64,000 nucleotides of DNA from Cyanobacteria bacterium P01_F01_bin.150 (GTDB taxonomy: Bacteria > Cyanobacteriota > Cyanobacteriia > CAKZMO01). The notes below the pieces were generated by a model, which did no database searches, was not told the origin of the DNA, and saw nothing but the letters and a program-made list of their open reading frames with translations. A program made the translations under genes and the position numbers. The DNA lies in the NCBI GenBank assembly GCA_039189765.1, contig JBCCYL010000007.1, positions 1-64,000 of the forward strand, in the 5' to 3' direction. Positions 36,329-64,000 of the stretch are shown piece by piece (within the stretch, counting starts at the first letter, position 1; every line of letters begins with the position of its first letter).

Positions 36329-36431
36329 CCTTAGCACATTCTTTCTATTTGACAGTCTTTGATAGAAAGCGATCGCGTCAATACAAAATTATTATTTTAT
36401 TTGGGTGTCAATTTTTGGGAATCTTATTTTA

Positions 36432-44026: not shown

Positions 44027-47000
44027 TTAATCCTCAATAAAAATAATGCCAGAAGCCAGTGGAGTCTGCTTAAAGCTTACGTTGTCTCGTTTTTCTTCAA
44101 TACTTTTGAGTTTGATGTCTAGTTCACGATTGACTTTTCTCAACTGTCCCTCTGTAGCGGGAATAATTTGAGTTTTCCCCTCCTGTCGGAATCTCTCTAA
44201 ACGAGTGCTCAGCTCTTTCTGTCTCCTTGCTGCAAATGCCCTGGCGCTATTTTCCTGAGTATTGCAGCGATTATCATTGTCAATATAAAAGTCATCTATG
44301 GCCTGACCATAGGTATCCTCAAGGTAGGCATCACACTGCTTTTGGCGCTCAATAAGGCGATCGCTATTACCAACAAAGTTATGGGCATTGGGCTTTAAAC
44401 GTCCATATTTCATTAACGTTGCTAAGACTGATTCTGATTGCTGGTCGGACAGAAATTGTTTATCGTTAACGTTGATAATTTTATAGGCTAGCTGACTCTC
44501 GGTTTTGAGCCCCTGAAACGTCCAGACATGTACAGAGTAAGCATACAGTCCTGGCACCAGCTTTACGGTATTGGGAGAGGCTTGAATTGCCGAAACGGGG
44601 TGTAGGGACTGGGCCGCAGTGGCGTAGCGATCGCGTATCCAAAGAATCAGTGGATGGGTCGGATCAAGCAACTCATTACTTTGGCCCATATGGTCTGACT
44701 GCTTGGGGTTAAAAAAGCAGCCAATTGGAGACCCAGAAGTATGTAAACGAGTCGGGGTCACGCAACGGTTCTGGCTAACAAAAAAGCCTAAGTCAACTTT
44801 AGCTTTTTCCGATAGGCTAATGTGAAATAGACCTGGAGAGCTGGCCAAGGGCTTAATTATGGTGCCGGGATAGTAACGGGCAAAACAATCTTCTACAAAC
44901 GACTGCATTTCTTCTGGCTGTAGCCATCGTCCTTGTTCTCGGCTGTTATTAATTGAATCTAAAATATGGTCTGAAAAGGCCATCATATTGACGGCTTCAT
45001 TTTCCAGTTCTGTTTGTAGCAGCTTATTTTTTTTCAGGGCATCGCCTGTTTCAATCGCTCGCTTTTCCTTTTCTGCTGGAGATAAGTTGGGATTAAATAA
45101 TTCCGCGATCAGCTCCTCGGTCATATCGCCCAGAATATTTTCTAAGTCGCCAATACTTTCCTTAAAAATATCAATCCGCTCGTACAGCTTTTCTAGAATT
45201 CTTTCTTCGACAGTATTGACTAAGCTGAAATTTATAATGGAAATTCGTTCTGCTTTTTGCCCCAATCGATCCAAACGGCCAATGCGCTGTTCCACTCGCA
45301 TCGGGTTCCAGGGTAAATCATAGTTGACTAAAAAATGGCAGTGCTGGAGGTCGATGCCTTCGCTGCCAACTTCAGAGGAGAGCAAAACGGAGGGACCATC
45401 GTCTTGGCGGAAGTGCTCGACTACATCCCATTTGCGATCGCCCATATCCCCCATAATTAAGCAGGTAGAAATCCTATCTGCCTTTAGCCGCCGTTCTAAG
45501 TAGGTCAATGTTCCTCGAAAGTAGGCAAAAATTACAAACTTCTCGGCGGGATTTGCATCGAGAGTGTCTTTTAGAAACTCGACTAACTGAGCGTATTTAC
45601 TATCCTGAGCTTCTAGCTTTTCAATCCACATGGATGGGGACACGTTGGGAGAAAAGAGAGGCCTTGAGCGATCGCGTTGATTCGACGATGCAAAGTATGG
45701 ATCGCCTGGTTCTCGGAGCTGAGGAGAAACGCCAAAGTCTTCCCAAAGGGATTCATTTACCAAATCGTCAAGAATACCGTCTGACTGCCAGGTTTCCAGA
45801 GCGGCTACCATGCAGCTAGCCATTTGTCGTTGCCGAGCCACCAGGCTCAGTAACGATGTGCCCTTTTGTCCTTGGGCCTGTTGGCGAATTTCTTCCGTAA
45901 CCGTTTCATAAATTTGGCGTTCGGGTTCAGAAAAGTGGACCGTCAACGTTTGGGGATCGCGTTTGACTCGATTTGGCAAAACATCACGTTTACGACTGCG
46001 GGTCAGGTATTGGCTTAGTAGGGAGACTTTTTCCAGTTTGTAGCCAAGGTCAACTCGCTGATCGTCGGTGAGGCGATCGCTCCCCTCCAGGGTCTGAGCA
46101 ATTTGCTTTATCAGCGCATTTTCTACAAAGTAGCTGGACTTAGACGCTTGCTGTACTGATTCTTTAGCCTTAGGAGCGTTGGCAGGTTTAGTCCATAAAT
46201 AACGCAGGGCATGGACCACAGGCTGATTGGCCTCCAGCATCTGATCAAACACATCCTCATTAAAAAAATCTTCTGGACTCAGCAACCGCAGAAGCTGATA
46301 TAGATTTGTACTATCGGTTTGAATCGGCGTTGCCGTTAGCAACAGCAGATGATGGGATGCGTCTCTTGCTAGCTGACCAATTCGATGATTGGCGGTGGTG
46401 GCATTTCGCAGATAGTGAGCCTCATCAATAATCACCAGATTAAACAGACTAAACTCATTGCTGGCAGGATTATCGTCCAAAAGTCGAGCCAGTTCAGCCC
46501 TCGCACTGGTTGCCCTTGGCTCTTCCCATCCGCTGGGCGGACGTAAGCCTTCCAAACTGGCAATACAAACAAACGAGGGCTGTTTACGCTGGTTTTCCAG
46601 ACAGAGCCTAGAACGATTTAGCAGCTCCTTAGCATCCACAATATCAGCAAAAATATTAAACCGCTGGAGTAAATCATCCTGCCACTTCTGCCGCAGCATG
46701 GCGGGGCAAATAATTAACAAGCGCCGAGCATCTTCACGGCTCTGGAGTTCTTTCCAGATGTACATTGCCTCAACGGTTTTACCCAACCCCACCTCATCCG
46801 CAATCAAAATTCTCCCCACAGGAGAATTCAAAAATTTAAGCACAGGCTTAAACTGGTGGGCATAGAATGTGGTCTGGCTTGATTCCATGCTGTAAAACAC
46901 ATTTGTAAGCTGTCCCTTCAGTTTTTCAAAGGTCAGAATTCGCCGCAGATCGTCCGGCCCCCCATACCTCCCCTGCCGCATTAAGCCAGCAATACTATCA

Positions 47001-47185
47001 TCATCTCCACACAGCTCCAGAAGATTTTGGGGTTTGTACGTTTTTTCTGCTGGTCCAAACTGTACTTCAACCAAGAGCCTTGTTCCAGCTTGACGAACTT
47101 TTCCTGTCGTTTTGCCGCGTCGCCCTGGATTGGATTTCAATCGAACGTCTTGATCCGCAATTTCTGGATTCCATGTTTGAGCCAT
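44027..47185 (-). CDS. SNF2-family (RapA/DrmD-like) helicase
   Basis: ADEVGLGKT, DEAH, LLTATP, SEVGSEGIDLQ and NYDLPWNPMRVEQRIGRLDRLGQ motifs; long C-terminal extension. Confidence 0.93.
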   Translation of the reverse strand: MAQTWNPEIADQDVRLKSNPGRRGKTTGKVRQAGTRLLVEVQFGPAEKTYKPQNLLELCGDDDSIAGLMRQGRYGGPDDLRRILTFEKLKGQLTNVFYSMESSQTTFYAHQFKPVLKFLNSPVGRILIADEVGLGKTVEAMYIWKELQSREDARRLLIICPAMLRQKWQDDLLQRFNIFADIVDAKELLNRSRLCLENQRKQPSFVCIASLEGLRPPSGWEEPRATSARAELARLLDDNPASNEFSLFNLVIIDEAHYLRNATTANHRIGQLARDASHHLLLLTATPIQTDSTNLYQLLRLLSPEDFFNEDVFDQMLEANQPVVHALRYLWTKPANAPKAKESVQQASKSSYFVENALIKQIAQTLEGSDRLTDDQRVDLGYKLEKVSLLSQYLTRSRKRDVLPNRVKRDPQTLTVHFSEPERQIYETVTEEIRQQAQGQKGTSLLSLVARQRQMASCMVAALETWQSDGILDDLVNESLWEDFGVSPQLREPGDPYFASSNQRDRSRPLFSPNVSPSMWIEKLEAQDSKYAQLVEFLKDTLDANPAEKFVIFAYFRGTLTYLERRLKADRISTCLIMGDMGDRKWDVVEHFRQDDGPSVLLSSEVGSEGIDLQHCHFLVNYDLPWNPMRVEQRIGRLDRLGQKAERISIINFSLVNTVEERILEKLYERIDIFKESIGDLENILGDMTEELIAELFNPNLSPAEKEKRAIETGDALKKNKLLQTELENEAVNMMAFSDHILDSINNSREQGRWLQPEEMQSFVEDCFARYYPGTIIKPLASSPGLFHISLSEKAKVDLGFFVSQNRCVTPTRLHTSGSPIGCFFNPKQSDHMGQSNELLDPTHPLILWIRDRYATAAQSLHPVSAIQASPNTVKLVPGLYAYSVHVWTFQGLKTESQLAYKIINVNDKQFLSDQQSESVLATLMKYGRLKPNAHNFVGNSDRLIERQKQCDAYLEDTYGQAIDDFYIDNDNRCNTQENSARAFAARRQKELSTRLERFRQEGKTQIIPATEGQLRKVNRELDIKLKSIEEKRDNVSFKQTPLASGIIFIED

Positions 47186-47197
47186 CGCGATCGCCTC

Positions 47198-49609
47198 CTA
47201 GGTCATATCTTTGGTATCGCCATAGTGCATTGGCCCGTCAAAAGCCTCATAGGACGATGAATCATCTGATTCGACTTGACTGGGAAGACGGATAGCTGGC
47301 CCTTCCCAATTTGGAATACACAATCCATAAGCCACAGCAAAGCGATTAAAGTTAACGGGATCAATGCCATTAATCGCTAAATTTTTAGGCGGCGGGATGT
47401 CTTTAATTTCATAGGGGGGAATGCTCGCAGAGCCTTGGTTAAACTCTGCGTGAGTCGATTGAATGGTTGTTCGGAAAAAGGGCGTATTTCCTCCACCACC
47501 GCCGACAAAGACGTTTAAGGTTGCATCCAAATCATTTTTATACATGCCACCACGGGCGTCCTGATGCTTCTCGTTGCCATCCATCACTACCGACGCCACA
47601 AGTCTCTGCACATTAAGGCGGGTGGTACTATCCTGTAGCTTGTCATGGAGGGTTTGATCATAGAGTTCAGGATCTGGATTGAGTGAAGAGAGCTGTTGTT
47701 CGGATGCTCTGTTGCCATTTGAGGCTAACATCATGCGAATTTGATGGGACGTACTGCCTAATTCTTTAGCGGCTTGCTGGGCAAAGGCCGTTACCCCTAA
47801 AGGCTGTACCTCCCCTTTGTAGAAATCAACATACTTCCCTCCATCCTGTCGCCAGAACCGAAACGCGGCCCCATCTAACGTACCGTCGCCAATATCAAAG
47901 AATGTATAGAAGCCTTCCTGAGCTTCCCGTGAATCTAAAAATGACCAAACCGCTGCGGCAATTTCCGGTGTCGTCGCACAATCGAGTTCTTGAACTGCGT
48001 TATCAACCATCCATTTTTCTAAATGATCGAGCAATTGTGTTAATGAGGACAATGTCACATTGGGTGTGTTAAGGTCGGTCTGACTTAGGACCCAAGCTAG
48101 AGATAAGACCTTTTGAAATCTGGCTAAAGCAGGAGAATCACAGTATTCTACGGGCACTCCGACATTGATACTCCACCGAACGGTTTGATTGGTCAATAAG
48201 TCAGCATGGTGGCTTTTAATCCATTTTTGGGCACGTTGGATAACCTGACTGAGATAGTAAGCGCTCAAGCGTTCTACTATTATTGGATCATCAAGCTCTG
48301 GCAATTTCTCCAAACGCCATAAAGACTCTGAAGAGGACTCTGACGGTAAATCAAGGTCCGCTAACCGCATTTTAATAAAGTCGATAGTCTGTTCAATACA
48401 GTAGTCTCCTTCTTCCCATTCCGCTAAGGTTAAACCGGTTAGAAGCGTTCCGTCTTCAAGAATAGCGAGTTTAGTGGGAATTAAGGTTTGTTCTAACGGT
48501 AGCGGATGCTCTAACGTATTGATATCGACAAAGGTGACAATTTCAGCCTGATCTCGACTCAAGTCACGAAAACAAACCTTGGTAAATCCTGTCCCAAAGT
48601 CAATTCCAATGTTGAGATCAATATCGTAGTCTTTGCCCGCTGTGGGAAGCTGAGGCACTATATTGTGCCACTGATCCCTGATTAGAGATTCTGAGGATGG
48701 GAGCTGATCTGGATCTGGAGGAATTTCTCTGGCAGAAGACTCAGACGGCGGCTCGGATGGCGCTGGAATAGATCGAAATTCAATCCGCAGGCTGTTAATC
48801 TCTTGCTGAAGCTGAGTCAACAATTCTGAGAGTTGAGTGACATCGGTATCCAATCTGCGGGTCTGTTGATCAACCTCAGTTCTCTGATCCGCAAATGCTT
48901 GCTGCTGAGTTGCAAATGCCTGCTGTTGAGTTTGAGTAAACTGCTGGAGTTGAGATTGCTGGGATGCAAAGGTTTGTTGCTGAGTCTGGGTAAGCTGCTG
49001 AAATCGATCGTCAATTTTCTGGTCGATTTGGTCAAGCTGATCGATTTTGTTGGCGATCGCATCCACCGACGGCAAAAGCTGTTCTAGCTGGGTTGTCCAG
49101 GTATCGACACTCGACACCCGGGCAAATGTGGCCATTTGCTGGTCATGCTGGTTGAGGCGATCGCGCAACTCTCCAACCACATCAGTAAAAGCTTGAACCT
49201 GCTGACTAAGCTCTTGACGCAGGGTTTGTTCTAGAGCCTGAAGTTGAGCTAAGTTATGATTGGTCTGGGGGTCGGGCTGTTCCTGCCGCTGTTCCTGCTG
49301 TTGTTCAAATCGCTGGGCCAAGGCATTCAGCTCTTGCTGGAGCTTCTGTGTATGCTTGGAAAATCCATCGACCCGTCGTTCAAGTTGCTGGACAGAGGTG
49401 TTGGCTTGGGCCAGATGCTGGTCGATATGCTTTGATATTTGCTGTTCTTGCTGACGACGGCTGGCAAGATTAAGAGCAACAGTCACGGAAAGGGGAATAA
49501 CGGAGTAGGCAATTTGCTGGGTGGCGATCGCAATAATGGAGCCGATCCCTGATGCAGAGGCAGATGCATACTCCGCAATATTGAGCAACGAGCGATGATG
49601 AGACGACAT
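47198..49609 (-). CDS. Membrane-anchored coiled-coil protein with C-terminal Hsp70/actin-like ATPase domain
   Basis: N-terminal hydrophobic hairpin and a Gln-rich coiled coil, then IGIDFGTGFTK (phosphate-1), VGVP, PEIAAA (connect-1), FDIGDGTLD (phosphate-2), VFVGGGG (adenosine) and AVAYGL (connect-2). Confidence 0.8.
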   Translation of the reverse strand: MSSHHRSLLNIAEYASASASGIGSIIAIATQQIAYSVIPLSVTVALNLASRRQQEQQISKHIDQHLAQANTSVQQLERRVDGFSKHTQKLQQELNALAQRFEQQQEQRQEQPDPQTNHNLAQLQALEQTLRQELSQQVQAFTDVVGELRDRLNQHDQQMATFARVSSVDTWTTQLEQLLPSVDAIANKIDQLDQIDQKIDDRFQQLTQTQQQTFASQQSQLQQFTQTQQQAFATQQQAFADQRTEVDQQTRRLDTDVTQLSELLTQLQQEINSLRIEFRSIPAPSEPPSESSAREIPPDPDQLPSSESLIRDQWHNIVPQLPTAGKDYDIDLNIGIDFGTGFTKVCFRDLSRDQAEIVTFVDINTLEHPLPLEQTLIPTKLAILEDGTLLTGLTLAEWEEGDYCIEQTIDFIKMRLADLDLPSESSSESLWRLEKLPELDDPIIVERLSAYYLSQVIQRAQKWIKSHHADLLTNQTVRWSINVGVPVEYCDSPALARFQKVLSLAWVLSQTDLNTPNVTLSSLTQLLDHLEKWMVDNAVQELDCATTPEIAAAVWSFLDSREAQEGFYTFFDIGDGTLDGAAFRFWRQDGGKYVDFYKGEVQPLGVTAFAQQAAKELGSTSHQIRMMLASNGNRASEQQLSSLNPDPELYDQTLHDKLQDSTTRLNVQRLVASVVMDGNEKHQDARGGMYKNDLDATLNVFVGGGGGNTPFFRTTIQSTHAEFNQGSASIPPYEIKDIPPPKNLAINGIDPVNFNRFAVAYGLCIPNWEGPAIRLPSQVESDDSSSYEAFDGPMHYGDTKDMT

Positions 49610-55603: not shown

Positions 55604-58390
55604 ATGAAGGACTCACTACATAGCTTGAACAATCGTTCCCCAGATACTCCCCATGAACCTGATATTGAGACGTTTGTTAATCTGCCGTCCAATAAATTGT
55701 TGTCTCCCGATCCCAAATTACTTGAACCTTGTTGTGAAACTCGGGAAGATGCTCAGAGTATGAATCAACAGGTAGCTATGAACTCTAGTCTGTTACCGCA
55801 AGATGTGACAGTGGAGCCTACAGTCCCATATCCTTTCGAATCAGCTGCTCAGAGACATACTGAGCCAACGGTTAAAATTCCAGATAGTGCATCGAATACC
55901 GAAACTAAAAGCCTTGAAGAAACTGGAACTGCTGGGCGATCGCCTTTTCGTTCCACCTATCTTAGCAATCTAAACCTAAGCGGCTTAAGACTGACAAACC
56001 TCAGTCGTTTGCTACTTGACCATAGTCAACTCTTACGGGATGACGGTAAAGGATTAAGTTTGCTGGGGGTTGGCCATGGCATTGTCGCAGGGATTGCTGT
56101 TGTAGCTTCGGGCTTGACGATACTGAATCCTCCCTGGATTCAATCTTTGGAATATGAAGTTCAAGCCTTCTTCTTCCAACATCGGGGAACGATCAGCCCT
56201 CCTCAAGATATTGTGATTTTGGAAATTGATGAAACATCACTAGCTCAAGGAGAATTTTATAGCAGCGATCCTGATAAATATTCTGATCTTGAACTAATTC
56301 AACAGTGGCCTTGGCAGCGGCAAGTCTATGCGATCGCCATTGAGCGAGTGATGGAAGCAGGCGCTAAAGCAGTTGCTTTAGACCTAATTTTGGATCGACC
56401 AAGTGTTTGGGGAGATAAAGATGATGGTTTTCTCCAATATGCTTTAGAGCGCTATCCCGAAAGAATTGTCTTAGCGTCGAGTTTTGACGATAGTGCAAAT
56501 GATACTGGTTCCACCCTTCAGCTTGCACCTCCTCTCGTTCGCTTTTTGGATGCAGGTGGTAGACCAGGGGTTATTAATTATCCGTTTGCTCCCAATGATC
56601 GTATCCATAAGTTCTCTCAAGTCTGGTTACAGGATCAAGCGGATTCTGATATCGCGATGCAAACATACTTAAATGGATTACCGGACTCATTAACTCAAAC
56701 CTTTGTTGAACAGACGGTATTGGCTGCTCAGAACCGTAATATGGTCGAGACGGTCGAGGCTGATCTATCACTAAGGGGAGAACAAATATTTTTCTATGGT
56801 CCAGCAGGCACCTTTGAGCATGAAGCATTTTGGACTATTTTGGATCCGCAAAATTGGGAGGTGCATCAATTCCAAAATACCTTTCGAGACAAAATTGTCT
56901 TGATTGGCCCCACTGCCAAACTCTTTCAAGACTCGCATCGTACGCCCTTTGGGTTCATGTCAGGGATTGAAATTCATGCCAATGCTATTGCCACCTACCT
57001 CAATAATCGATCGATTACAGAGGCGTTGCCTAATCCTTATCTCAAGGCAGGATTGGTTTTAGGGCTAACTATATTGACTGGATTAGGGGCTAGTTATCCT
57101 CGCCGCACATCGTATCGTATGTTGATTACTCTTGCCGGAGTGAGTGCTTGGACTGTCTTCAGTTATGTTTCTTGGGTTGCAGGACGCTTGGCCTTACCAA
57201 CCGCTGTACCTTTGGGTGCCATTACCCTTGGGGGGGCTGGGTATGTTACGACTGGGTTACTCCAAGAAAAACTGCGCAAACTGAAATTACGTAGTGCATT
57301 GAAACAATATGTCAGCTCCCCTATTGTTCAAGACATCATTAACCAGCAGGATGATCTCCATGATTTAATTTCTGAGGAAGAGAAAGAGACCATCGGCAAG
57401 ATTTTAGATGGGCGATACAAAATTATAGAGATCTTGGCCTCGGGAGGTTTTGGCCAAACGTTTATTGCCCAAGATTTAAGACGTCCGGGTCAACCACGCT
57501 GCGTTGTTAAGCAACTCCGGCCAGTTAGTAATGATCCCCGAGTTTTTCATCTCTCAAGACGGTTGTTTAATAAAGAAGCTGAAACCCTTGAGCGACTCAA
57601 TCATAATCAGATACCTCAGCTTTTGGCTTATTTTGAAGAGGCCCAAGGCTTTTACTTAGTGCAAGAACTGGTTGAAGGGCACCCGCTACGCTACGAACTA
57701 TTGCCTAAGCCAAGTTCAGAATTAAATGTCATCCTTATTTTGAAAGAACTTCTAGAAATTCTTGTCTTTATCCATGATATGAGAGTGATTCATCGTGACA
57801 TTAAACCTAGCAACATTATCCGTCGTCACTCCGATCAGCGGTTAGTCCTCATTGATTTCGGAGCCGTTAAAGAAATTCAGGCAACCGCACCAGGTGAAGA
57901 AGGAGAACCAGACAAAACAGTTTCTATTGGTACTCGTGGTTATATCTCGAATGAACAGTTAGCAGGGAATCCACGATTTAACAGTGATATTTACGCGGTT
58001 GGTGTAATTGGGATACAGGCTAGTACAGGATTATCGCCTGATAAGTTGGTCGATGATGCGGAAACTGGAGAACTCGTCTGGCAGCCATTTTCTGACCATA
58101 GTGAGGCGCTCAAAGAAATTATTGATAAGATGGTCCGATATGATTTCAGTAAACGATATCAGTCAGCTCAAGATGTTCTAGAGGACTTGCAGCCGTTGTT
58201 AGATATGCACATTACAGATGATGAAGGAGCAGTCTCAGCATCTCTGCCAGCATACACAATATTAAAGTCTCACCACAGAACTGAGTTTGGTGATGAGACC
58301 ATTGAACTTACAGATGGCGATTTAGATGCTACAGTTCCTTGGCCGACGGGAGTGAAAGAAGATCTGATTGATGACGCCACAAACTCCTAA
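55604..58390 (+). CDS. CHASE2 sensor Ser/Thr protein kinase
   Basis: CHASE2 (WPWQR, ALDLIL, MSGIEIHAN), 3 TM segments, Hanks kinase (GGFGQT, VVK, HRDIKPSN, DFG, SDIYAVG). Confidence 0.92.
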   Translation: MKDSLHSLNNRSPDTPHEPDIETFVNLPSNKLLSPDPKLLEPCCETREDAQSMNQQVAMNSSLLPQDVTVEPTVPYPFESAAQRHTEPTVKIPDSASNTETKSLEETGTAGRSPFRSTYLSNLNLSGLRLTNLSRLLLDHSQLLRDDGKGLSLLGVGHGIVAGIAVVASGLTILNPPWIQSLEYEVQAFFFQHRGTISPPQDIVILEIDETSLAQGEFYSSDPDKYSDLELIQQWPWQRQVYAIAIERVMEAGAKAVALDLILDRPSVWGDKDDGFLQYALERYPERIVLASSFDDSANDTGSTLQLAPPLVRFLDAGGRPGVINYPFAPNDRIHKFSQVWLQDQADSDIAMQTYLNGLPDSLTQTFVEQTVLAAQNRNMVETVEADLSLRGEQIFFYGPAGTFEHEAFWTILDPQNWEVHQFQNTFRDKIVLIGPTAKLFQDSHRTPFGFMSGIEIHANAIATYLNNRSITEALPNPYLKAGLVLGLTILTGLGASYPRRTSYRMLITLAGVSAWTVFSYVSWVAGRLALPTAVPLGAITLGGAGYVTTGLLQEKLRKLKLRSALKQYVSSPIVQDIINQQDDLHDLISEEEKETIGKILDGRYKIIEILASGGFGQTFIAQDLRRPGQPRCVVKQLRPVSNDPRVFHLSRRLFNKEAETLERLNHNQIPQLLAYFEEAQGFYLVQELVEGHPLRYELLPKPSSELNVILILKELLEILVFIHDMRVIHRDIKPSNIIRRHSDQRLVLIDFGAVKEIQATAPGEEGEPDKTVSIGTRGYISNEQLAGNPRFNSDIYAVGVIGIQASTGLSPDKLVDDAETGELVWQPFSDHSEALKEIIDKMVRYDFSKRYQSAQDVLEDLQPLLDMHITDDEGAVSASLPAYTILKSHHRTEFGDETIELTDGDLDATVPWPTGVKEDLIDDATNS

Positions 58391-58863
58391 AGAAGGTGTA
58401 CATCTTGGATAAAGTTCAAGAGGATAGCTTGGTGAGGAGTTCCAATGGGGCAGATTTTCTGGGCCAGCTTTGAATAGGCTTCTCCGTTGCGAATATCGCT
58501 ATAACTCAAAAAATCCATATCCCATCCTTCATTGAGGATTAACGTGGACAGATCAGCCTTTAGCGGCGCATGATAAACATGACGAATTACAGGAGAGTCA
58601 GTAGTTGCAATGGTGTCGGTGTATGAGCGATACAACTTTAAGTTAGGAGGAACAAAATTAATTTCTTCTAAGAGTTCACGGCTGATGCCATCATCAGGTG
58701 TTTCCCCCGGCTCCAAATGGCCGCCGAAAAAAGCCCAATGGCCAGGATAACGAATTGTTGGAATGTCATCTCGAAGCTGCATAAGGAAACGCCCAGGTTG
58801 GTGGAGAATGGCGATCGCCACCTCAATTTTAGAATGCGCTCCAAAAAAGGGCTGTATCTGCAT
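58387..58863 (-). CDS. NUDIX hydrolase
   Basis: 'LMQLRDDIPTIRYPGHWAFFGGHLEPGETPDDGISRELLEEI' Nudix box. Start uncertain (ATG 58863; the ORF extends to 58908). Confidence 0.92.
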   Translation of the reverse strand: MQIQPFFGAHSKIEVAIAILHQPGRFLMQLRDDIPTIRYPGHWAFFGGHLEPGETPDDGISRELLEEINFVPPNLKLYRSYTDTIATTDSPVIRHVYHAPLKADLSTLILNEGWDMDFLSYSDIRNGEAYSKLAQKICPIGTPHQAILLNFIQDVHLL

Positions 58864-59052
58864 CACAATGAGTCCACATGCTTGAGAATTACTTGAGACA
58901 GGACTCAAATCATAAAATAAATTGGTTCCAACGTGGAAATCGTAACGTCCTCCCAGTTTGGCTCAGGTAATTGTATCGACGGAAAATTCCCAAAATGTTC
59001 AGAAAAGTCGCCAGATAGTCCGGATTCTCAATCGTCTTCCTAGGAGATAGGA

Positions 59053-59104
59053 ATGGTAGATGCACCCTGATTCGACCCCGTTAGGATTTTCCTTTCGGGG
59101 TTTT
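59053..59104 (+). ncRNA. NsiR1-like small RNA, copy 1 (most divergent)
   Basis: Core 21-mer plus hairpin GACCCCG-TT-AGGA-TTT-TCCT-TT-CGGGGTT-TT; TCCGGA at 59019. Confidence 0.7.
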
Positions 59105-59211
59105 CTCTTAGATTTAAATATTCCGTTAGTTTAGAAATTGATAATAGCTGAGATTTATAAAAAAATATATATAAAAGTCCGGATCTTATTAATTTATGAA
59201 GGTAGACAGGA

Positions 59212-59262
59212 ATGGTAGATGCACCCTGATTCAACCCTGAAAGATTTATTCTTTTGGGGTTT
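59212..59262 (+). ncRNA. NsiR1-like small RNA, copy 2
   Basis: Core 21-mer plus hairpin AACCCTGAAAGA...TCTTTTGGGGTT; TCCGGA(59178)-N18-GTA. Confidence 0.75.
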
Positions 59263-59590
59263 CCTTATGCTTACTGCCGTAATCTATGAGTGAGCATTTA
59301 GATTTATTGACTGGGCAATTAGAAATTAATTTATTTTATGAAACTTATAGCTATGAATTATTCCAAAATGTGATTATGGAAATATATTTTATTTTTTGAA
59401 TATTTGTATTTTGCGTAAATTTGCTGATGCTCATTTATTTATTGATAATATATTGAAGCTTTTTTGTTGTTAGCTAGTGAACTCATTTGATTTTCGGATA
59501 TTTTTATCGAGCTTTAAAACTTTTTGATGGAAAGAACTATTGTTATATTCAAAATATCCGGATATTGAATTCCTCTATGAGTAACTAGGA

Positions 59591-59643
59591 ATGGTAGATG
59601 CACCCTGATTCAACCCTGAAGAAATTTATCCCTTCGGGGTTTT
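59591..59643 (+). ncRNA. NsiR1-like small RNA, copy 3
   Basis: Core 21-mer plus hairpin AACCCTGAAG...CTTCGGGGTT-TT; TCCGGA(59557)-N18-GTA. Confidence 0.75.
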
Positions 59644-59755
59644 CTTGTTTTTTATAATTTTATTAAGGTGATAATTTAAGTTCGTTATAAATATATAGGT
59701 CTTTATTTTTATAGCTAAACTATCCGGAGATCAATATTATTGTAGGTAAGTAGAT

Positions 59756-59808
59756 ATGGTAGATGCACCCTGATTCAACCCTGAAAGAATTTATTCCTTC
59801 GGGGTTTT
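59756..59808 (+). ncRNA. NsiR1-like small RNA, copy 4
   Basis: Core 21-mer plus hairpin AACCCTGAAAGAAT..ATTCCTTCGGGGTT-TT; TCCGGA(59723)-N17-GTA. Confidence 0.75.
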
Positions 59809-59918
59809 CTCATTTCTCTATTGATTTAGAGTTTCAAGTGCTTTAATCTATCTTTGAAAGGATTTTAAATTTACGAACAAACTGTCCGGAATATAGATGT
59901 ATTTATAGGTAACCAGAT

Positions 59919-59971
59919 ATGGTAGATGCACCCTGATTCAACCCTGAGAGGATTTATTCTTTCAGGGTTTT
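59919..59971 (+). ncRNA. NsiR1-like small RNA, copy 5
   Basis: Core 21-mer plus hairpin AACCCTGAGAGGAT..ATTCTTTCAGGGTT-TT; TCCGGA(59885)-N18-GTA. Confidence 0.75.
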
Positions 59972-60072
59972 CTTGACTTTATTCGTTAATTTATAAAATA
60001 TTTAAATACTTTTTTGTTTGATTTCTATGATTAAAATTTCCGGAGTTTAACTATTTCTGCGAGTAAGTAGAA

Positions 60073-60125
60073 ATGGTAGATGCACCCTGATTCAACCCTG
60101 AGAGGATTTATTCTTTCAGGGTTTT
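60073..60125 (+). ncRNA. NsiR1-like small RNA, copy 6 (RNA part identical to copy 5)
   Basis: Core 21-mer plus the same hairpin as copy 5; TCCGGA(60039)-N18-GTA. Confidence 0.75.
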
Positions 60126-60235
60126 CTTGTTCTTAGCCTGCCACTTAGTAAGATTGGAATACCTTCTAAATATCTGCTTATTTATCTTTTCAGCTAAACT
60201 ATCCGGACTTTGAATACTCTTATGAGTAAGTAAAA

Positions 60236-60287
60236 ATGGTAGATGCACCCTGATTCAACCTCGAAAGAATTTATTCTTTCGGGGTTT
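60236..60287 (+). ncRNA. NsiR1-like small RNA, copy 7
   Basis: Core 21-mer plus hairpin AACCTCGAAAGAAT..ATTCTTTCGGGGTT-T; TCCGGA(60202)-N18-GTA. Confidence 0.75.
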
Positions 60288-60332
60288 CCTGTTTCTACAG
60301 GAAAAATGACATAACTTACGTAACTCGAATGC

Positions 60333-60407
60333 CAATTTTAGGCTGGTAGTGTAGGGGCGTCGCCTTCGCTCTATCTGTGGTTTTGTGTCAGATTAAAGCG
60401 AAACCCC
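60333..60407 (+). repeat. Degenerate copy of the ~84-bp hairpin repeat family
   Basis: CAATTTTAGG-CT-GGTAGTGTAGGGGCGTCGCCTTCGCTCTATC...TTAAAGCGAAACCCC; same length (75 nt) and same ends as 16726-16800. Confidence 0.7.
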
Positions 60408-60632
60408 ACAACTTAGACTTATTAACGATGAGAACCCAAAGCATTTTGCTGTCGATAAAATCGGTCTTCAGCCTAAAGATATGTACAAAGATATCGCTTT
60501 GTACTAAATCCGTAACGGATAAGGGCAAAAGAATCCATTGACCAACAGGACACGATAAAATCCGGAAAGGATGAATTGGTGACGAATAATGCCATTCAAC
60601 CGAAACTCTTCAATTAATTCGGGGGAAAGCCT

Positions 60633-61091
60633 GTGACTGCTATTTTATCGAATGAAGCTGATGTAACAACTGAACATTATGTTGTCTTGGGCCTGGCGAA
60701 CTGCTTTATTAAAGAAGATGGTGAGGTTCATCCAGTCAAAGTGTTGGAACCCATTCCATCAGCGGCATTGGAAGCCTTGATAAAGGGTATCCCCACATCC
60801 TATAGTTTGGCTTATGCTACTCAAATTGGAGCCATCCTCTCTGACGAAGCCCCCACAATGCCCAGTGTTTTTCCGAAAGATGTGCAGCTATGTGATGATT
60901 TTGCAAGCCGAGCAATCGCTGCTGCACGCACTTACCACTCCCGTCCTGAGGCACAAACTCACATTCCGCTGAATACGACCTACGAAACTTTCAACACGTC
61001 TTTAGATCGGAAGCGCGTATTAAATTCAGAAAACATCGTTAGAACAGAAGATAACGTTAAACAGCACTCATATACACATCAAGTTCTTTAA
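60633..61091 (+). CDS. Conserved cyanobacterial hypothetical protein
   Basis: GTG start with a GGGGG RBS-like run. 'YVVLGLANCFIKEDGEVH..KVLEPIPSA.LEAL.KGIPTSY' and 'DNVKQH.YTH.VL' resemble a conserved cyanobacterial family. Confidence 0.8.
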   Translation: MTAILSNEADVTTEHYVVLGLANCFIKEDGEVHPVKVLEPIPSAALEALIKGIPTSYSLAYATQIGAILSDEAPTMPSVFPKDVQLCDDFASRAIAAARTYHSRPEAQTHIPLNTTYETFNTSLDRKRVLNSENIVRTEDNVKQHSYTHQVL

Positions 61092-61108
61092 TTAATTTGT
61101 CTAAATTT

Positions 61109-61666
61109 ATGACTCTCAAACTTTACGGTGGTACCCGTACTCGCGCCTCTATTATTAAGTGGTACCTCGAAGAAAAAAATATTCCCTACGATTTTGTTCT
61201 GCTGGACTTACGAGCTGGGGAACATCAAACATCGGAGTTTTTAGCGATTAACCCGATGGGGAAAGTCCCCGCCATTGTGGATGAGGATGTGACTTGTTGG
61301 GAGTCTGGTGCGATTTTACTTTATTTGGCAGACCATTATGCTCCGACTCCTCTAAGTGCCGCTCACCGTGCGGCTTTAGGGCAGTGGGTAATGTTTGCCA
61401 ATGCAACGCTGGGACCAGGCTTGTTTATTGAAAGTAACAGGGAGAGGGAAGGCGATCGCCTCCTTTCTTCTTTAAACAGCGTTCTGGAAAAATCTGAATA
61501 TTTGGTTGATGATGACCTAAGTGCGGCAGATATTGCCGTTGGGGCCTACTTAGCGTACGCCACTATGATGGTCAAACTCACCTATGAGAACTATGGGGCG
61601 ATCGCCACCTATGTGACTAATCTCACTCAGCGCCCTGCCTTCAAGTCCACCATCGGTGCTCGTTGA
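61109..61666 (+). CDS. Glutathione S-transferase family protein
   Basis: 'KLYGG.RTRASI..WYLEE', 'INPMGKVPAI', 'WESGAILLYLA' and 'SAADI'. Confidence 0.93.
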   Translation: MTLKLYGGTRTRASIIKWYLEEKNIPYDFVLLDLRAGEHQTSEFLAINPMGKVPAIVDEDVTCWESGAILLYLADHYAPTPLSAAHRAALGQWVMFANATLGPGLFIESNREREGDRLLSSLNSVLEKSEYLVDDDLSAADIAVGAYLAYATMMVKLTYENYGAIATYVTNLTQRPAFKSTIGAR

Positions 61667-61772: not shown

Positions 61773-64000
61773 CTAGAGGCAATTAGAAACAGGCGCTAAG
61801 CTCAAAGATCTGTTGGCGGTCAACTGGATTGAACCATCCGAAGCCACAGTAAATTCTGTAGCTTCTTGAGGATGGGCGTGGATTTTCATGGCAGAGTGAT
61901 TAGTGGGAGGGGCAGAAGAGACTGTTGCGCTCTCAATGGTCTCAGGAATAGTTCCAAAATCAGGAAAAATGTGATACCAGGAGCGATCGCTGTTTCCATC
62001 TGGCTCTGTAGATAACCCACCCTGTCCGATTATGACAAAGTAACTTCCTTGGGCTACGTTACAGGATGTCGAAATAGCTTGAGTCACATCAGTAATGGTG
62101 GTGGGCAGGATGACTGCCGCACTGCTTGGGTCAATGTCGGGAGTTGTAATCTGGACAGTCCCGCTAATTCCTGATTGTGAGCTAGCTGTAATATCGTTCC
62201 CATCTGTCAATCTATCTCTGACGGCTAAGTTAAATAATCCCTCTGTTGTAATTTGAATATTGCCTCCATCTCCATCAAAGGCATTGGCGACAATATCGCT
62301 ATTGCCAGTTGCAGCCAAAAACGGTGATGTAATTGTAATGTTGCCACCATTGCCACCATCTCCCTGCCCTGTACCTGCTTGGGTAGAAATGGCCCCTTCT
62401 CCTCCCCTGTCGGCTAAAATCAAACCCCGATCAATATCGAGAGTGATATTACCGCCACCGCTTTGTTCGCTAAGAGCCGTTATGGCTCCGTTATCTAAAA
62501 TTAGAGTACCGATATCCATTGTTACGTTGCCCGCTCTGGCTTCCTGAGGGAATGACGAGGCTGTAGAAACTGAAGGCGATCTGGATTGAGATCGCGATCG
62601 CCTATTGCTGAATAAACCATCAAAGTTGATTGTGTCTGCACTAGCGGAGACTTCTGCTCCATTTTGAATTAGGAGTAGAGGAGCTGTGACCATAATGTCG
62701 CCGCCTAACCCACTAGCCTCTATTTCAGTCTCTGACGAGAGTAATCGTTGTGCGCCTGCTGATAACCCACTAGCGAATAAACCATCCGAAGGAGAGCGAC
62801 CATCTAATAAAACTTGACCAGATGCTTGAACGGTCAGATTCCCCGCATTCCCCTCACCAAAGGTAGCGGATAAAAACTGCCCTCCGTCTCGAAAGCCTAG
62901 AGTGTTAGTCTCAATCTCGATGTTTCCGGCTGTACCCCTACCAAATGTTGATGTCGTCAATACGGAACCAATAACCTCAATATCTGTTGCTACAACATCA
63001 ATATTTCCCCCAGTACCATCTTTAAAAGCTGAGCTAGCGATAATCCCGCCATTCTGTAAGTGAAGCTGTTCAGAGGTGATTTGAATTTGTCCCGCTTGCC
63101 CTTCTTCTAAGGCAAACGTGCCGATGCCTTGGGTGAAATTATCAGGGCTAAAGGTATTGGTAAACGCAGGCAAAATAGCATTTTGGCGTAAATCTTCACT
63201 GCCCGTACCCATAATATTGATGTCTATGGCTTGAATGTTAATATTGCCTCCATTCCCAGACGTTGTCGTAGAGGCGTTGATTAAGCCATTGTCTAAGATC
63301 AAGTTATGGGTATCAAGGTTAATATCGCCACCGCTGCCTGTGATGGTTGTGGCTGCAATTGTCCCCTGATTTACAAGCTCAGTTGTATTAGTTTCAATCT
63401 CCAGTTCTCCTGAGTCTCCAGAACCCTCCACAATCAAAGATATAGCCGCCTGATCTGAGATTTTTAAGTTGGGAGTTGTAATTGAAATATCGCCAGCATT
63501 CCCCTCCAGACTGTCGTCTAAGCCTAAAACTTGCCGACTCGTGTCATCAACAACAGTCACTTCAGAGCTAATCCGACTCCGAGTCAAGTCATCTGCAAAA
63601 GGGTTAGGAATAGCCCCTCTAACTAAGATTCGCTCTGATGCATGAATATCAAGACTACCCGCATTACCATCACTGATACTCGACGAGTCGATAATATTGC
63701 CATCCAGAATCTCTAATAATCGCGTGTTTATCTCAACAGTTCCGGCATTCCCAGACCCTAGAGTGGCCGAAGAGATTCCAGAGCCACTTAATTGATTGTT
63801 ATTGCCTGTAAGGCGAATGGAATCAGCCTGAATTGAAATATTTCCGCTATTCCCTTGCCCAATTAGGGTAGAAGAGGCAATCACTGCGCCATCTTTTACT
63901 ATCAAATTGCCTGTTTGAAGGTCGATATTTCCGGCATTTCCTCTTCCCCCAATGGCTGTCGCACGAATGGTGCTGACCTCTGTGCCAATTGGCGAGACTA
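61773..64000 (-). CDS. Filamentous-haemagglutinin/S-layer-family TpsA-like exoprotein (5' part beyond window)
   Basis: The frame stays open from 63905 to the window end. GNAG.I.I beta-helix repeats; C-terminal 'NDITASS..G.SG.V.I..PDIDPS' and 'F.I.GQGGL' shared with 36432-39095. Confidence 0.88.
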   Translation of the reverse strand, partial: VSPIGTEVSTIRATAIGGRGNAGNIDLQTGNLIVKDGAVIASSTLIGQGNSGNISIQADSIRLTGNNNQLSGSGISSATLGSGNAGTVEINTRLLEILDGNIIDSSSISDGNAGSLDIHASERILVRGAIPNPFADDLTRSRISSEVTVVDDTSRQVLGLDDSLEGNAGDISITTPNLKISDQAAISLIVEGSGDSGELEIETNTTELVNQGTIAATTITGSGGDINLDTHNLILDNGLINASTTTSGNGGNINIQAIDINIMGTGSEDLRQNAILPAFTNTFSPDNFTQGIGTFALEEGQAGQIQITSEQLHLQNGGIIASSAFKDGTGGNIDVVATDIEVIGSVLTTSTFGRGTAGNIEIETNTLGFRDGGQFLSATFGEGNAGNLTVQASGQVLLDGRSPSDGLFASGLSAGAQRLLSSETEIEASGLGGDIMVTAPLLLIQNGAEVSASADTINFDGLFSNRRSRSQSRSPSVSTASSFPQEARAGNVTMDIGTLILDNGAITALSEQSGGGNITLDIDRGLILADRGGEGAISTQAGTGQGDGGNGGNITITSPFLAATGNSDIVANAFDGDGGNIQITTEGLFNLAVRDRLTDGNDITASSQSGISGTVQITTPDIDPSSAAVILPTTITDVTQAISTSCNVAQGSYFVIIGQGGLSTEPDGNSDRSWYHIFPDFGTIPETIESATVSSAPPTNHSAMKIHAHPQEATEFTVASDGSIQLTANRSLSLAPVSNCL

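Follow-up and report, generated by a model that had tools for sequence, protein, structure and literature searches.

Can a locus for NsiR1, the small RNA (sRNA) that serves as a standard early marker of heterocyst differentiation, belong to a cyanobacterium that makes no heterocysts? NsiR1 has been portrayed as specific to heterocyst formers and tied to hetF, and heterocystous genomes are all reported to carry tandem nsiR1 copies near that gene (PMC4030482; here and below, published work is cited from those parts of each text that were accessible). The question is raised by a contig of Cyanobacteria bacterium P01_F01_bin.150, of which a stretch of 64,000 nucleotides (nt), hereafter the window, was analyzed. 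Close to its end lies an array of seven NsiR1-like units. A literature search for NsiR1 outside heterocyst formers, whose coverage did not extend to the original descriptions of NsiR1, returned a single passing mention, in Limnospira indica (PMC8400943). Taken as a whole, the data are probably best explained by a genuine seven-copy nsiR1 locus outside the Nostocales, which would be transcribed with the sigma factor HetZ (sigma-HetZ) and deliver the base-pairing output of an older HetR circuit.

The array consists of seven cassettes of promoter, sRNA and terminator, arranged as direct repeats, head to tail, at window positions 59019-60292 on the forward strand. Scores in the following list refer to the Rfam family NsiR1, RF02399, and the hexamer TCCGGA marks the -35 region.

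59019..59108, forward strand: nsiR1 cassette 1; TCCGGA at 59019-59024 (-35), AGGA in the -10 region, RNA at 59054-59108; 44.8 bits, predicted fold of -18.8 kcal/mol.
59178..59268, forward strand: nsiR1 cassette 2; TCCGGA at 59178 (-35), RNA at 59213-59268; 48.4 bits, with a predicted fold.
59557..59648, forward strand: nsiR1 cassette 3; TCCGGA at 59557 (-35), RNA at 59592-59648; 45.7 bits, preceded by a linker of 288 nt.
59723..59813, forward strand: nsiR1 cassette 4; TCCGGA at 59723 (the sole unit with -34), RNA at 59757-59813; 48.0 bits.
59885..59976, forward strand: nsiR1 cassette 5; TCCGGA at 59885 (-35), RNA at 59920-59976; 47.3 bits, with a predicted fold.
60039..60130, forward strand: nsiR1 cassette 6; TCCGGA at 60039 (-35), RNA at 60074-60130; 49.9 bits, terminator-like site at 60094-60123.
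60202..60292, forward strand: nsiR1 cassette 7; TCCGGA at 60202 (-35), RNA at 60237-60292; 47.3 bits, terminator-like site at 60257-60286.

The 21-mer ATGGTAGATGCACCCTGATTC occurs exactly seven times in the window, every time on the forward strand (59053, 59212, 59591, 59756, 59919, 60073 and 60236), a count that was matched in 0/100 shuffles (shuffle mean 0.01). A search of either strand that tolerated at most 3 mismatches recovered the seven array copies and nothing else, and no antisense site was found in the window. Successive units are spaced by 159, 379, 165, 163, 154 and 163 nt. The guanine-cytosine (GC) content of the array is 0.316, compared to 0.453 for the whole window and 0.44-0.48 for the flanks, and the longest open reading frame (ORF) within 58909-60632 has 64 amino acids (aa). 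A first-pass annotation of this DNA, made from the letters and their ORFs, had described a seven-unit, AT-rich region without a real ORF, and these figures confirm it.

Scanning the whole window with Rfam 15 at gathering thresholds gave seven matches, every one to NsiR1 and spanning the model from position 1 to 60 of 60, with scores of 44.8-49.9 bits against a cut-off of 39. The array is a new member of the known NsiR1 family, not a new sRNA family. The covariance-model check upheld the NsiR1 identity that the first-pass annotation had proposed, since 7/7 units exceed the gathering cut-off. The 5' part, UGGUAGAUGCACCCUGAU, is identical in 7/7 units to the upper-case RF02399 consensus, to which the 5' core quoted in the annotation is equal as well. 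Its RNA length of about 52 nt has to be corrected, since the Rfam matches, and with them the predicted RNAs, span 55-57 nt. Each unit is predicted to fold into a 3-bp (base pair) 5' hairpin with a 6-nt loop (pairs 2-13, 3-12 and 4-11 in 7/7 units), a 7-nt linker, a hairpin of about 13 bp and a U-rich tail, with minimum free energies of -14.9 to -18.9 kcal/mol (z -1.6 to -3.3); the 3' consensus stem comprises 13 pairs across the units. Terminator-like sites were called by a strict scan in 3/7 units, and in units 2 and 7 the tail (UUUCCU) is interrupted or U-poor. RNA nt 1-20 are the same in all seven copies, 18 of these nt being identical to Nostoc, and the aligned RNAs of cassettes 5 and 6 differ in the last 2 nt of cassette 6 only.

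How evenly is this conservation spread? Mean pairwise identity among the units is 100% for both the -35 hexamer and RNA nt 1-20; the terminator/hairpin part averages 81%, the promoter spacer 61% and the linkers 45%, in line with the earlier statement that linkers diverge while promoter spacing and core stay fixed. To follow the family further, a covariance model (R1) was built from 60 nsiR1 units; at the census threshold of E<=1e-7 it matched at least 119 copies in the window and 61 listed loci not named Nostocales. Among the 119 R1 matches, compensatory changes were seen in 8/8 pairs of the terminator stem (184 cells against 44 +/- 13 after shuffling, 0/500), in an alignment that is itself fitted to the model. 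Invariant hexamers, 20-nt cores and paired terminator stems amid drifted spacers and linkers argue for continuing selection on promoter and transcript. The same contrast bears on the idea that the array is an inert relic, a set of inherited repeats no longer transcribed or used. Such a relic would go well with an AT-rich array that has one long degenerate gap and with the lack of a recognizable target in the window by duplex prediction. However, linkers have drifted to 45% and spacers to 61% identity while all seven -35 hexamers and 20-nt cores are identical and the terminator stems still pair, and we regard a relic as very unlikely.

The long gap is the linker at 59269-59556, with 288 nt compared to 62-74 nt for the other linkers of the array. 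A decayed eighth unit in this gap (TTCGGA at 59493, ATGG 34 nt further on) was considered and rejected, the similarity of 59485-59556 to the units being at shuffle level (z -0.3, 189/300), and R1 returned no eighth NsiR1 unit in the window at E<=0.01. Comparable long internal gaps are found in other arrays, namely those of Symploca L020 (396, 498), Microseira L048 (426) and L028 (385).

We then compared the promoters with the published sigma-HetZ class. From the start of TCCGGA to the first T of TGGTAGATG we count 35 nt in six units and 34 nt in the unit at 59757. The first-pass annotation had given 33-34 nt from TCCGGA to ATGG, which equals 34/35 nt to the T of TGGTAG, and its GTA spacing is likewise recovered (18 nt after TCCGGA in five units, 17 nt in one, GGA in unit 1). 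Its designation of the promoters as DIF1-type holds, with TCCGGA at -35/-34 in 7/7 units. Across the 64-kb window the hexamer occurs 10 times (12.6 expected by base composition); seven of these lie in the array and one at 60561, and eight of the ten fall inside 1.55 kb. The sigma-HetZ consensus reads TCCGGA (-35 to -30), N16-17, TGNA, N7-9 and T at the start, and hetZ is under direct activation by HetR (PMC13342950). In the window we read TCCGGA, N17 (N16 in one unit), (A/G)G(T/G)A, N8 and then the U that forms Rfam RNA position 1. A relaxed pattern, TCCGGA-N16-17-NGNA-N7-9-T ending at the first U of the RNA, fits 7/7 window units and, among the matches listed, 58/86 named-Nostocales units. 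In the -10 region, named Nostocales nsiR1 promoters read AGAACA and window units (A/G)GTA, with AGGA in unit 1. The nsiR1 promoter has been assigned to the DIF+ class, for which the -35 and the extended -10 are both required; in Nostoc punctiforme the DIF1 hexamer and the extended -10 were both needed for heterocyst-specific expression, with a 17-bp spacer from the nsiR1 promoter (PMC6133370). The array had been called HetR/DIF1-driven. Current work attributes DIF1 promoters to HetZ, a sigma factor that HetR turns on, so that the window promoters are better worded as putatively sigma-HetZ-driven and HetR-dependent.

Whether the host forms heterocysts was approached through two marker proteins. 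The density of HIP1 sites (0.89 per kb in the window) is consistent with a cyanobacterium. The best matches of OpcA are metagenomic proteins at 93, 84 and 81% identity, followed among organism-named entries by 72% (Elainellaceae, Synechococcales, Leptolyngbyaceae) and 71% ('Cyanobacteria bacterium J06627_8'). For ABC-F, an unlinked protein, the best named matches reach 82% ('Cyanothece sp. SIO2G6', a metagenome-assembled genome (MAG), and a Leptolyngbyaceae MAG); next come matches at 78% and 75% (Leptolyngbyaceae, Elainellaceae). Among the best 120 matches, Nostocales account for 0/31 organism-named entries with OpcA and for 0/34 with ABC-F. Since the Nostocales are densely sequenced, a member of the order would show close named relatives. 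We infer that the host is a cyanobacterium outside this heterocyst-forming order, in a lineage without a close named relative, and apparently no heterocyst former; as far as the two marker proteins show, this is the non-heterocystous host that the first-pass annotation had supposed in its reading. The RNA linker and the -10 variant are also closer to L092 ('Cyanothece sp. SIO2G6') than to the uniform Nostocales type. In that MAG, the nearest named relative by ABC-F, a single nsiR1 copy (L092 444-526) is followed after about 90 nt by a tRNA gene (RF00005, 58.8 bits).

An ordinary heterocyst former with a second or relocated nsiR1 array, as found in some Nostoc genomes, would give a similar picture: the three-unit locus L019 of Nostoc sp. 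FACHB-280 is also without HetF within 8 kb upstream, and the window spans just 64 kb. Against this stand the absence of Nostocales from both lists (0/31 and 0/34), with the nearest named relatives at 72-82% identity, an NCBIfam scan of 37 window ORFs that found no heterocyst gene, and a linker and -10 variant that resemble L092 and not the uniform Nostocales type. We give this explanation only a very slight chance. The lack of heterocyst genes in the window had already been stated in the first-pass annotation.

If the host lies outside the Nostocales, is it alone in carrying NsiR1? Species-representative genomes were scanned for the exact 18-nt core, which yielded at least 125 stretches; 4 duplicate loci were removed, the others were grouped by record title, and eight taxon names were spot-checked in NCBI taxonomy. 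For comparison, about 17 matches to an 18-mer are expected by chance in 596 Gb. The listed loci fall into 24 named Nostocales, 62 from named non-Nostocales genera or families, 33 from unnamed cyanobacteria, one Plectonema, which was kept apart, and one 'Clostridia' MAG. The last of these (L014 8001-8077) has the exact 18-mer and was taken as a chance match inside a gene, with no TCCGGA, one HIP1 site in 16 kb and an R1 score of 36.8 bits. The loci outside the Nostocales come from MAGs and cultured strains alike, the latter including Microcoleus vaginatus GB1-A2, Microseira wollei NIES-4236, Phormidesmis priestleyi ULC007 and BC1401, Leptolyngbya sp. PCC 6406, Geitlerinema sp. P-1104, Spirulina sp. 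CS-785/01 and Oscillatoria sp. CS-180. As a cross-check, Rfam returned at least one RF02399 match in 20/20 short loci from named non-Nostocales genomes (27 matches, 41.1-67.5 bits).

The promoter accompanies the RNA in these genomes. Among the matches listed, exact TCCGGA stands at the right distance in 58/86 named Nostocales units, 45/84 named non-Nostocales units and 32/43 units of unnamed cyanobacteria; among the 119 R1 matches listed, 78 carry the exact hexamer at -36..-34, with one mismatch in 39 and two mismatches in 2. The other hexamers are mostly one base off (TCCTGA, TCCGGT, CCCGGA), and these variants affect T-35, G-32 and A-30, the three positions at which, according to the sigma-HetZ study, the base can be replaced (PMC13342950). 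Copy numbers among the matches listed reach 11 in Microcoleus vaginatus GB1-A2 (L045), 10 in Microcoleus sp. D2_18a_B4 (L079), 8 in Symploca sp. SIO2C1 (L020), 7 in the window and 5 in Microseira wollei NIES-4236 (L048), and 42/62 sources with R1 matches have a single copy. Two Chamaesiphon-named MAGs (L015 8001-8064 and L031 8001-8059) hold single nsiR1 copies with the one-mismatch -35 hexamer TCCCGA. Chamaesiphon is a unicellular genus, and given these MAGs NsiR1 may not be limited to filamentous forms.

Linkage to hetF was scored with NCBIfam NF045509, which recognizes HetF in the fetched Nostoc loci (1469.9 bits), and with a hidden Markov model (HMM) built from 20 HetF proteins of fetched loci. 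Among the matches listed, HetF is adjacent and divergent in 10/11 informative named-Nostocales loci. Outside the Nostocales it is adjacent in 4/29 informative named loci, all of them single-copy, and 25/29 have none within at least 3 kb; of the remaining named non-Nostocales loci (62 in total), 32 have too little flank for a HetF call and one has copies on both strands. In unnamed cyanobacterial loci HetF is adjacent in 6/17, or in 7 when a hetF-proximal copy found by R1 in L047 is included. An array away from hetF is the usual condition outside the Nostocales among the matches listed. Divergent hetF-proximal copies outside the order occur in Crinalium L008, Coleofasciculaceae L040, Symploca L044, Phormidesmis L051 and J06627_8 L067. 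Several non-Nostocales genomes have the core at two contig positions (L073+L089 of FACHB-502, L030+L056, L011+L022, L038+L087, L017+L094 and L107+L125), and two of them, L073+L089 and L030+L056, pair one hetF-adjacent with one dispersed copy.

Only HetF and an S8 peptidase recur as neighbors in more than 7 listed loci, and the window is without the S8 peptidase. The latter is an S8 subtilase with a C-terminal DUF5942 domain, which lies downstream of and convergent to nsiR1 in at least 17 loci, inside and outside the Nostocales; without duplicates these are 15, namely L005, L008, L013, L032, L033, L036, L041, L045, L050, L055, L057, L058, L068, L069 and L079. In Microcoleus the S8-DUF5942 gene is still beside the array and hetF is not. 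The pattern suggests an ancestral gene order hetF / nsiR1 / S8-DUF5942.

The window is no oddity, being one of many NsiR1 loci in non-heterocystous cyanobacteria, and its interest lies in the general pattern more than in the locus. The first-pass annotation had spoken, for the case of a non-heterocystous host, of an undescribed sRNA system. The RNA family is a known one, and in the literature covered its presence outside heterocyst formers has one passing mention.

The genes around the array are as follows.

58387..58908, reverse strand: NUDIX hydrolase gene (Pfam PF00293, 5.6e-13), divergently oriented to the array and placed where Nostocales have hetF.
60561..60632, forward strand: stretch that may serve as an eighth DIF1-type promoter and as 5' leader to the 152-aa ORF; TCCGGA at 60561 (relaxed pattern), GTG start at 60633.
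60633-61091, forward strand, as the array: ORF of 152 aa, of no known family in Pfam, NCBIfam or ESM Atlas.
61097-61666, forward strand, as the array: glutathione S-transferase (GST; Pfam, NCBIfam).

The placement of the array between a NUDIX gene and a hypothetical/GST pair, as first annotated, agrees with the Pfam and NCBIfam scans. So does its description as not next to hetF with the HetF searches: no window ORF of at least 100 aa matches the HetF HMM (E<=1e-3), NF045509 has no match in the 710-aa ORF beyond the GST gene, and tblastn found none in the window. To the left of the NUDIX gene lie genes for a CHASE2 Ser/Thr kinase, a GNAT acetyltransferase and a large hybrid kinase/cyclase; beyond the GST gene, a convergent ORF of more than 710 aa without a family runs off the end of the window. 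For the 152-aa ORF, searches of Pfam, NCBIfam and ESM Atlas gave no match (best Atlas value 0.86; Atlas model with a predicted local distance difference test score of 0.33). Comparing the window flanks by blastn and tblastn with the 125 fetched loci, which do not include the window's own genome, revealed no common neighborhood. We also considered a possible cis-antisense action on the NUDIX gene; sigma-70-like promoters are not enriched in 58300-60700 (7 against 7.6 expected), and hence no long NUDIX leader across unit 1 is indicated.

The eighth TCCGGA, at 60561, lies 269 nt beyond unit 7 and 72 nt upstream of the GTG codon. It fits TCCGGA-N16-NGNA-N8-T, the only one of the three TCCGGA outside the array to do so, and a GGGGGAAAG stretch directly precedes the GTG start. 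These features weakly suggest a DIF1-type promoter. The segment 60561-60632 has a weak resemblance to the 3' half of the units (ATTCAAC..CGAAA..TTCGGGG; z 2.2, 6/300 shuffles), without a U-tract, and R1 gave no NsiR1 match there at E<=0.01; it may be a former unit that has turned into the promoter and leader of the ORF-GST pair. Could the array then act at the DNA level, by titrating sigma-HetZ or by driving the 152-aa/GST genes through read-through, with the RNA as a by-product? The clustering of 8/10 window TCCGGA in 1.55 kb, the fit of the eighth hexamer to the relaxed promoter 72 nt before the downstream ORF and the U-poor tails of units 2 and 7 (UUUCCU) would suit this possibility. Yet a decoy needs neither 20 invariant transcribed nt nor a hairpin kept by compensatory changes. 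The same RNA is single-copy in 42/62 sources with matches among those listed, and the 152-aa/GST genes are not conserved neighbors, since only HetF and the S8 peptidase recur in more than 7 listed loci. A purely DNA-level role thus appears highly improbable to us.

The other 50 kb of the window hold housekeeping cyanobacterial genes (fbp-tal-zwf-opcA, psbB, nrdR, fabG), cyclic di-GMP enzymes and a DISARM-type helicase. The last is a 1052-aa SNF2 helicase at 44027-49609 on the reverse strand (446 bits to the DISARM DrmD model, cut-off 610), followed by an 803-aa ORF without an NCBIfam family, and this region may be a defence island. Two ORFs, at 36405-39095 (forward strand) and 61773-63998 (reverse strand), both match L029 at about 14.0-15.6 kb by tblastn with 30-32% identity. 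A filamentous-haemagglutinin N-terminal domain is present in one of them; the other, without a family, runs off the window end, and the two may share a repeat-rich domain.

How would such an array work? On the reading that we prefer, a seven-copy nsiR1 locus of an older HetR circuit, each cassette would form a separate transcription unit, served by RNA polymerase that has HetZ as its sigma factor and reads TCCGGA as the -35. HetR would switch on HetZ, and when the circuit fires the seven genes would raise the dose of one sRNA. The invariant RNA nt 1-20 would form its functional surface, most likely acting by base pairing. The likeliest target would be a hetF leader elsewhere in the genome that has its own antisense nsiR1 copy, as the hetF-proximal copies in relatives do, and the window copies could plausibly act as trans-acting amplifiers of that site; further mRNAs may be targeted as well. 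In Nostoc, NsiR1.1 is an antisense RNA that blocks hetF translation, PCC 7120 copies which do not overlap hetF also take a partial share in regulating it, and NsiR1.4 represses alr3234. The circuit itself is reported to be widespread: hetR, hetZ and patU are described as belonging to the core gene set of filamentous cyanobacteria, whether or not these form heterocysts; what the genes do in heterocyst-free strains is stated to be unknown, and a DIF1 promoter has been predicted upstream of patX-hetR in the non-heterocystous Leptolyngbya sp. BL0902. As hetR, hetZ and patU occur in many heterocyst-free filamentous cyanobacteria, NsiR1 is best read as an output of an older circuit, not as a heterocyst invention.

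Binding of a PatR-like protein could be an alternative or additional mode. If the sRNA acted through a protein partner, the invariant 5' hairpin would be the binding site of a PatR-like protein that the sRNA sequesters or by which it is guided. In cross-linking and immunoprecipitation sequencing (CLIP-seq) of Nostoc PatR, NsiR1 was enriched with a log2 fold change of 5.6. Furthermore, 18 nt identical across orders exceed what a seed typically needs, and the linker after the core varies freely. On the other hand, base pairing of Nostoc NsiR1 with the hetF and alr3234 mRNAs has been shown, and pairing and protein binding may both hold. We consider a protein-mediated action unlikely as the main mode, and retain base pairing as the preferred one.

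Several points weigh against the reading of a sigma-HetZ-driven, base-pairing NsiR1 array in a heterocyst-free host. The strict TGNA motif is present in 0/7 window promoters, and among the matches listed also in just 1/86 named-Nostocales nsiR1 promoters; the word nsiR1 has 0 occurrences in the main text of the sigma-HetZ paper, as far as that text was accessible (PMC13342950). None of hetR, hetZ, patU, patX and hetF was found among the 37 window ORFs by NCBIfam, and the presence of the circuit in the host is assumed from relatives and the literature. Host placement is suggested by the best-hit lists of two proteins, not by a tree. When the 25-nt 5' part was paired with 41 translation-start regions of the window, the best duplex (-22.0 kcal/mol) did not stand out from the shuffled mean best of -21.7 (78/200 shuffles as good). 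In Nostoc, targeting of alr3234 is reported to be set by differences between NsiR1.1 and NsiR1.4, and Nostoc targets are not carried over to the window RNA here. Start site, RNA size and inducing signal of the window units are predictions from sequence. Lastly, the genome sample is incomplete and biased, since an exact 18-mer was required and at least 125 stretches were listed.

Two features of the window depart from the textbook picture, the apparently non-heterocystous host and the lack of hetF linkage, and both are common in public genomes among the matches listed. The complete cassette of sigma-HetZ-type promoter, invariant core and terminator occurs in many non-heterocystous lineages, in some as large arrays, and mostly unlinked to hetF. 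This distribution suggests that NsiR1 and its sigma-HetZ-type promoter predate heterocyst differentiation, or at least extend well beyond it. Far more tentatively, we propose that NsiR1 could be the ancestral output of HetR, sigma-HetZ and PatX, with arrays that fire in a subset of cells and set their fate, one conceivable route being repression in trans of HetF, the divisome protease; in the window the array would have lost its tie to hetF and gained one to a DIF1-driven operon of the 152-aa ORF and GST. This is possible, though we would not count on it. If true, it would give a first concrete, testable readout of the job that 'heterocyst' regulators do in organisms making no heterocysts. To learn if undifferentiated filaments run a patterned, cell-specific program, the locus offers a compact reporter, its promoter being about 50 nt long, and a presumably abundant RNA. 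For annotation, nsiR1 matches outside the Nostocales are not to be dismissed as false positives; Rfam-based annotation has evidently already flagged such genes.

It remains to compare the array with known systems. The nsiR1 array of Nostoc/Anabaena PCC 7120, with 12 copies upstream of hetF, has in common with the window the RF02399 family, the first 18 nt, tandem copies each with a TCCGGA promoter and a terminator, and the promoter geometry. However, that array is divergent from hetF, with copy 1 antisense to the hetF leader, whereas the window has the NUDIX gene in this place. The window RNA has a 7-nt linker (CUGAUUC) and a -10 of (A/G)GTA, compared to a longer linker and AGAACA in Nostocales, and PCC 7120 is a heterocyst former while the window host, judged by two markers, appears not to be. 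With the sigma-HetZ/DIF1 promoters of hetR, patS/patX, sigC and hep (PMC13342950, PMC7377430) the window shares TCCGGA, the spacer of 16-17 nt, and a predicted start 7-9 nt downstream of a -10 that has the conserved G and A; it differs in the first T of the published TGNA, which is A or G in the window units. Function of this class has been shown solely in Anabaena and an E. coli test system, not in a heterocyst-free host.

In Limnospira indica PCC 8005, a filamentous, heterocyst-free host, a 57-nt RNA (RNA162) has been annotated as NsiR1-like and seen by RNA sequencing (PMC8400943). In the accessible text it is a single gene mentioned in passing, without an analysis of promoter, copy number or context, while the window has seven copies with DIF1-type promoters. 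Also comparable are the unannotated arrays L045, L079, L020 and L048, which like the window are multi-copy and outside the Nostocales, with TCCGGA or a one-mismatch hexamer at -35. Over at least 7 kb upstream of L045, L079 and L020 no HetF is encoded; the flank of L048 is too short for a call. The Symploca array L020 also resembles the window in its period of 169-170 nt and its long internal gaps. Microcoleus units, unlike those of the window, have a period of about 139 nt, mostly TCCTGA, and an S8-peptidase/DUF5942 neighbor as at Nostocales arrays. Finally, the copies in the window are comparable to the sibling sRNAs of E. coli, P. aeruginosa, B. subtilis and S. meliloti, near-identical genes that act additively or on partly different targets (PMC9045159). 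Sibling sRNAs usually come in 2-5 copies and are often dispersed, whereas the window holds seven head to tail, each with its own putative alternative-sigma promoter.

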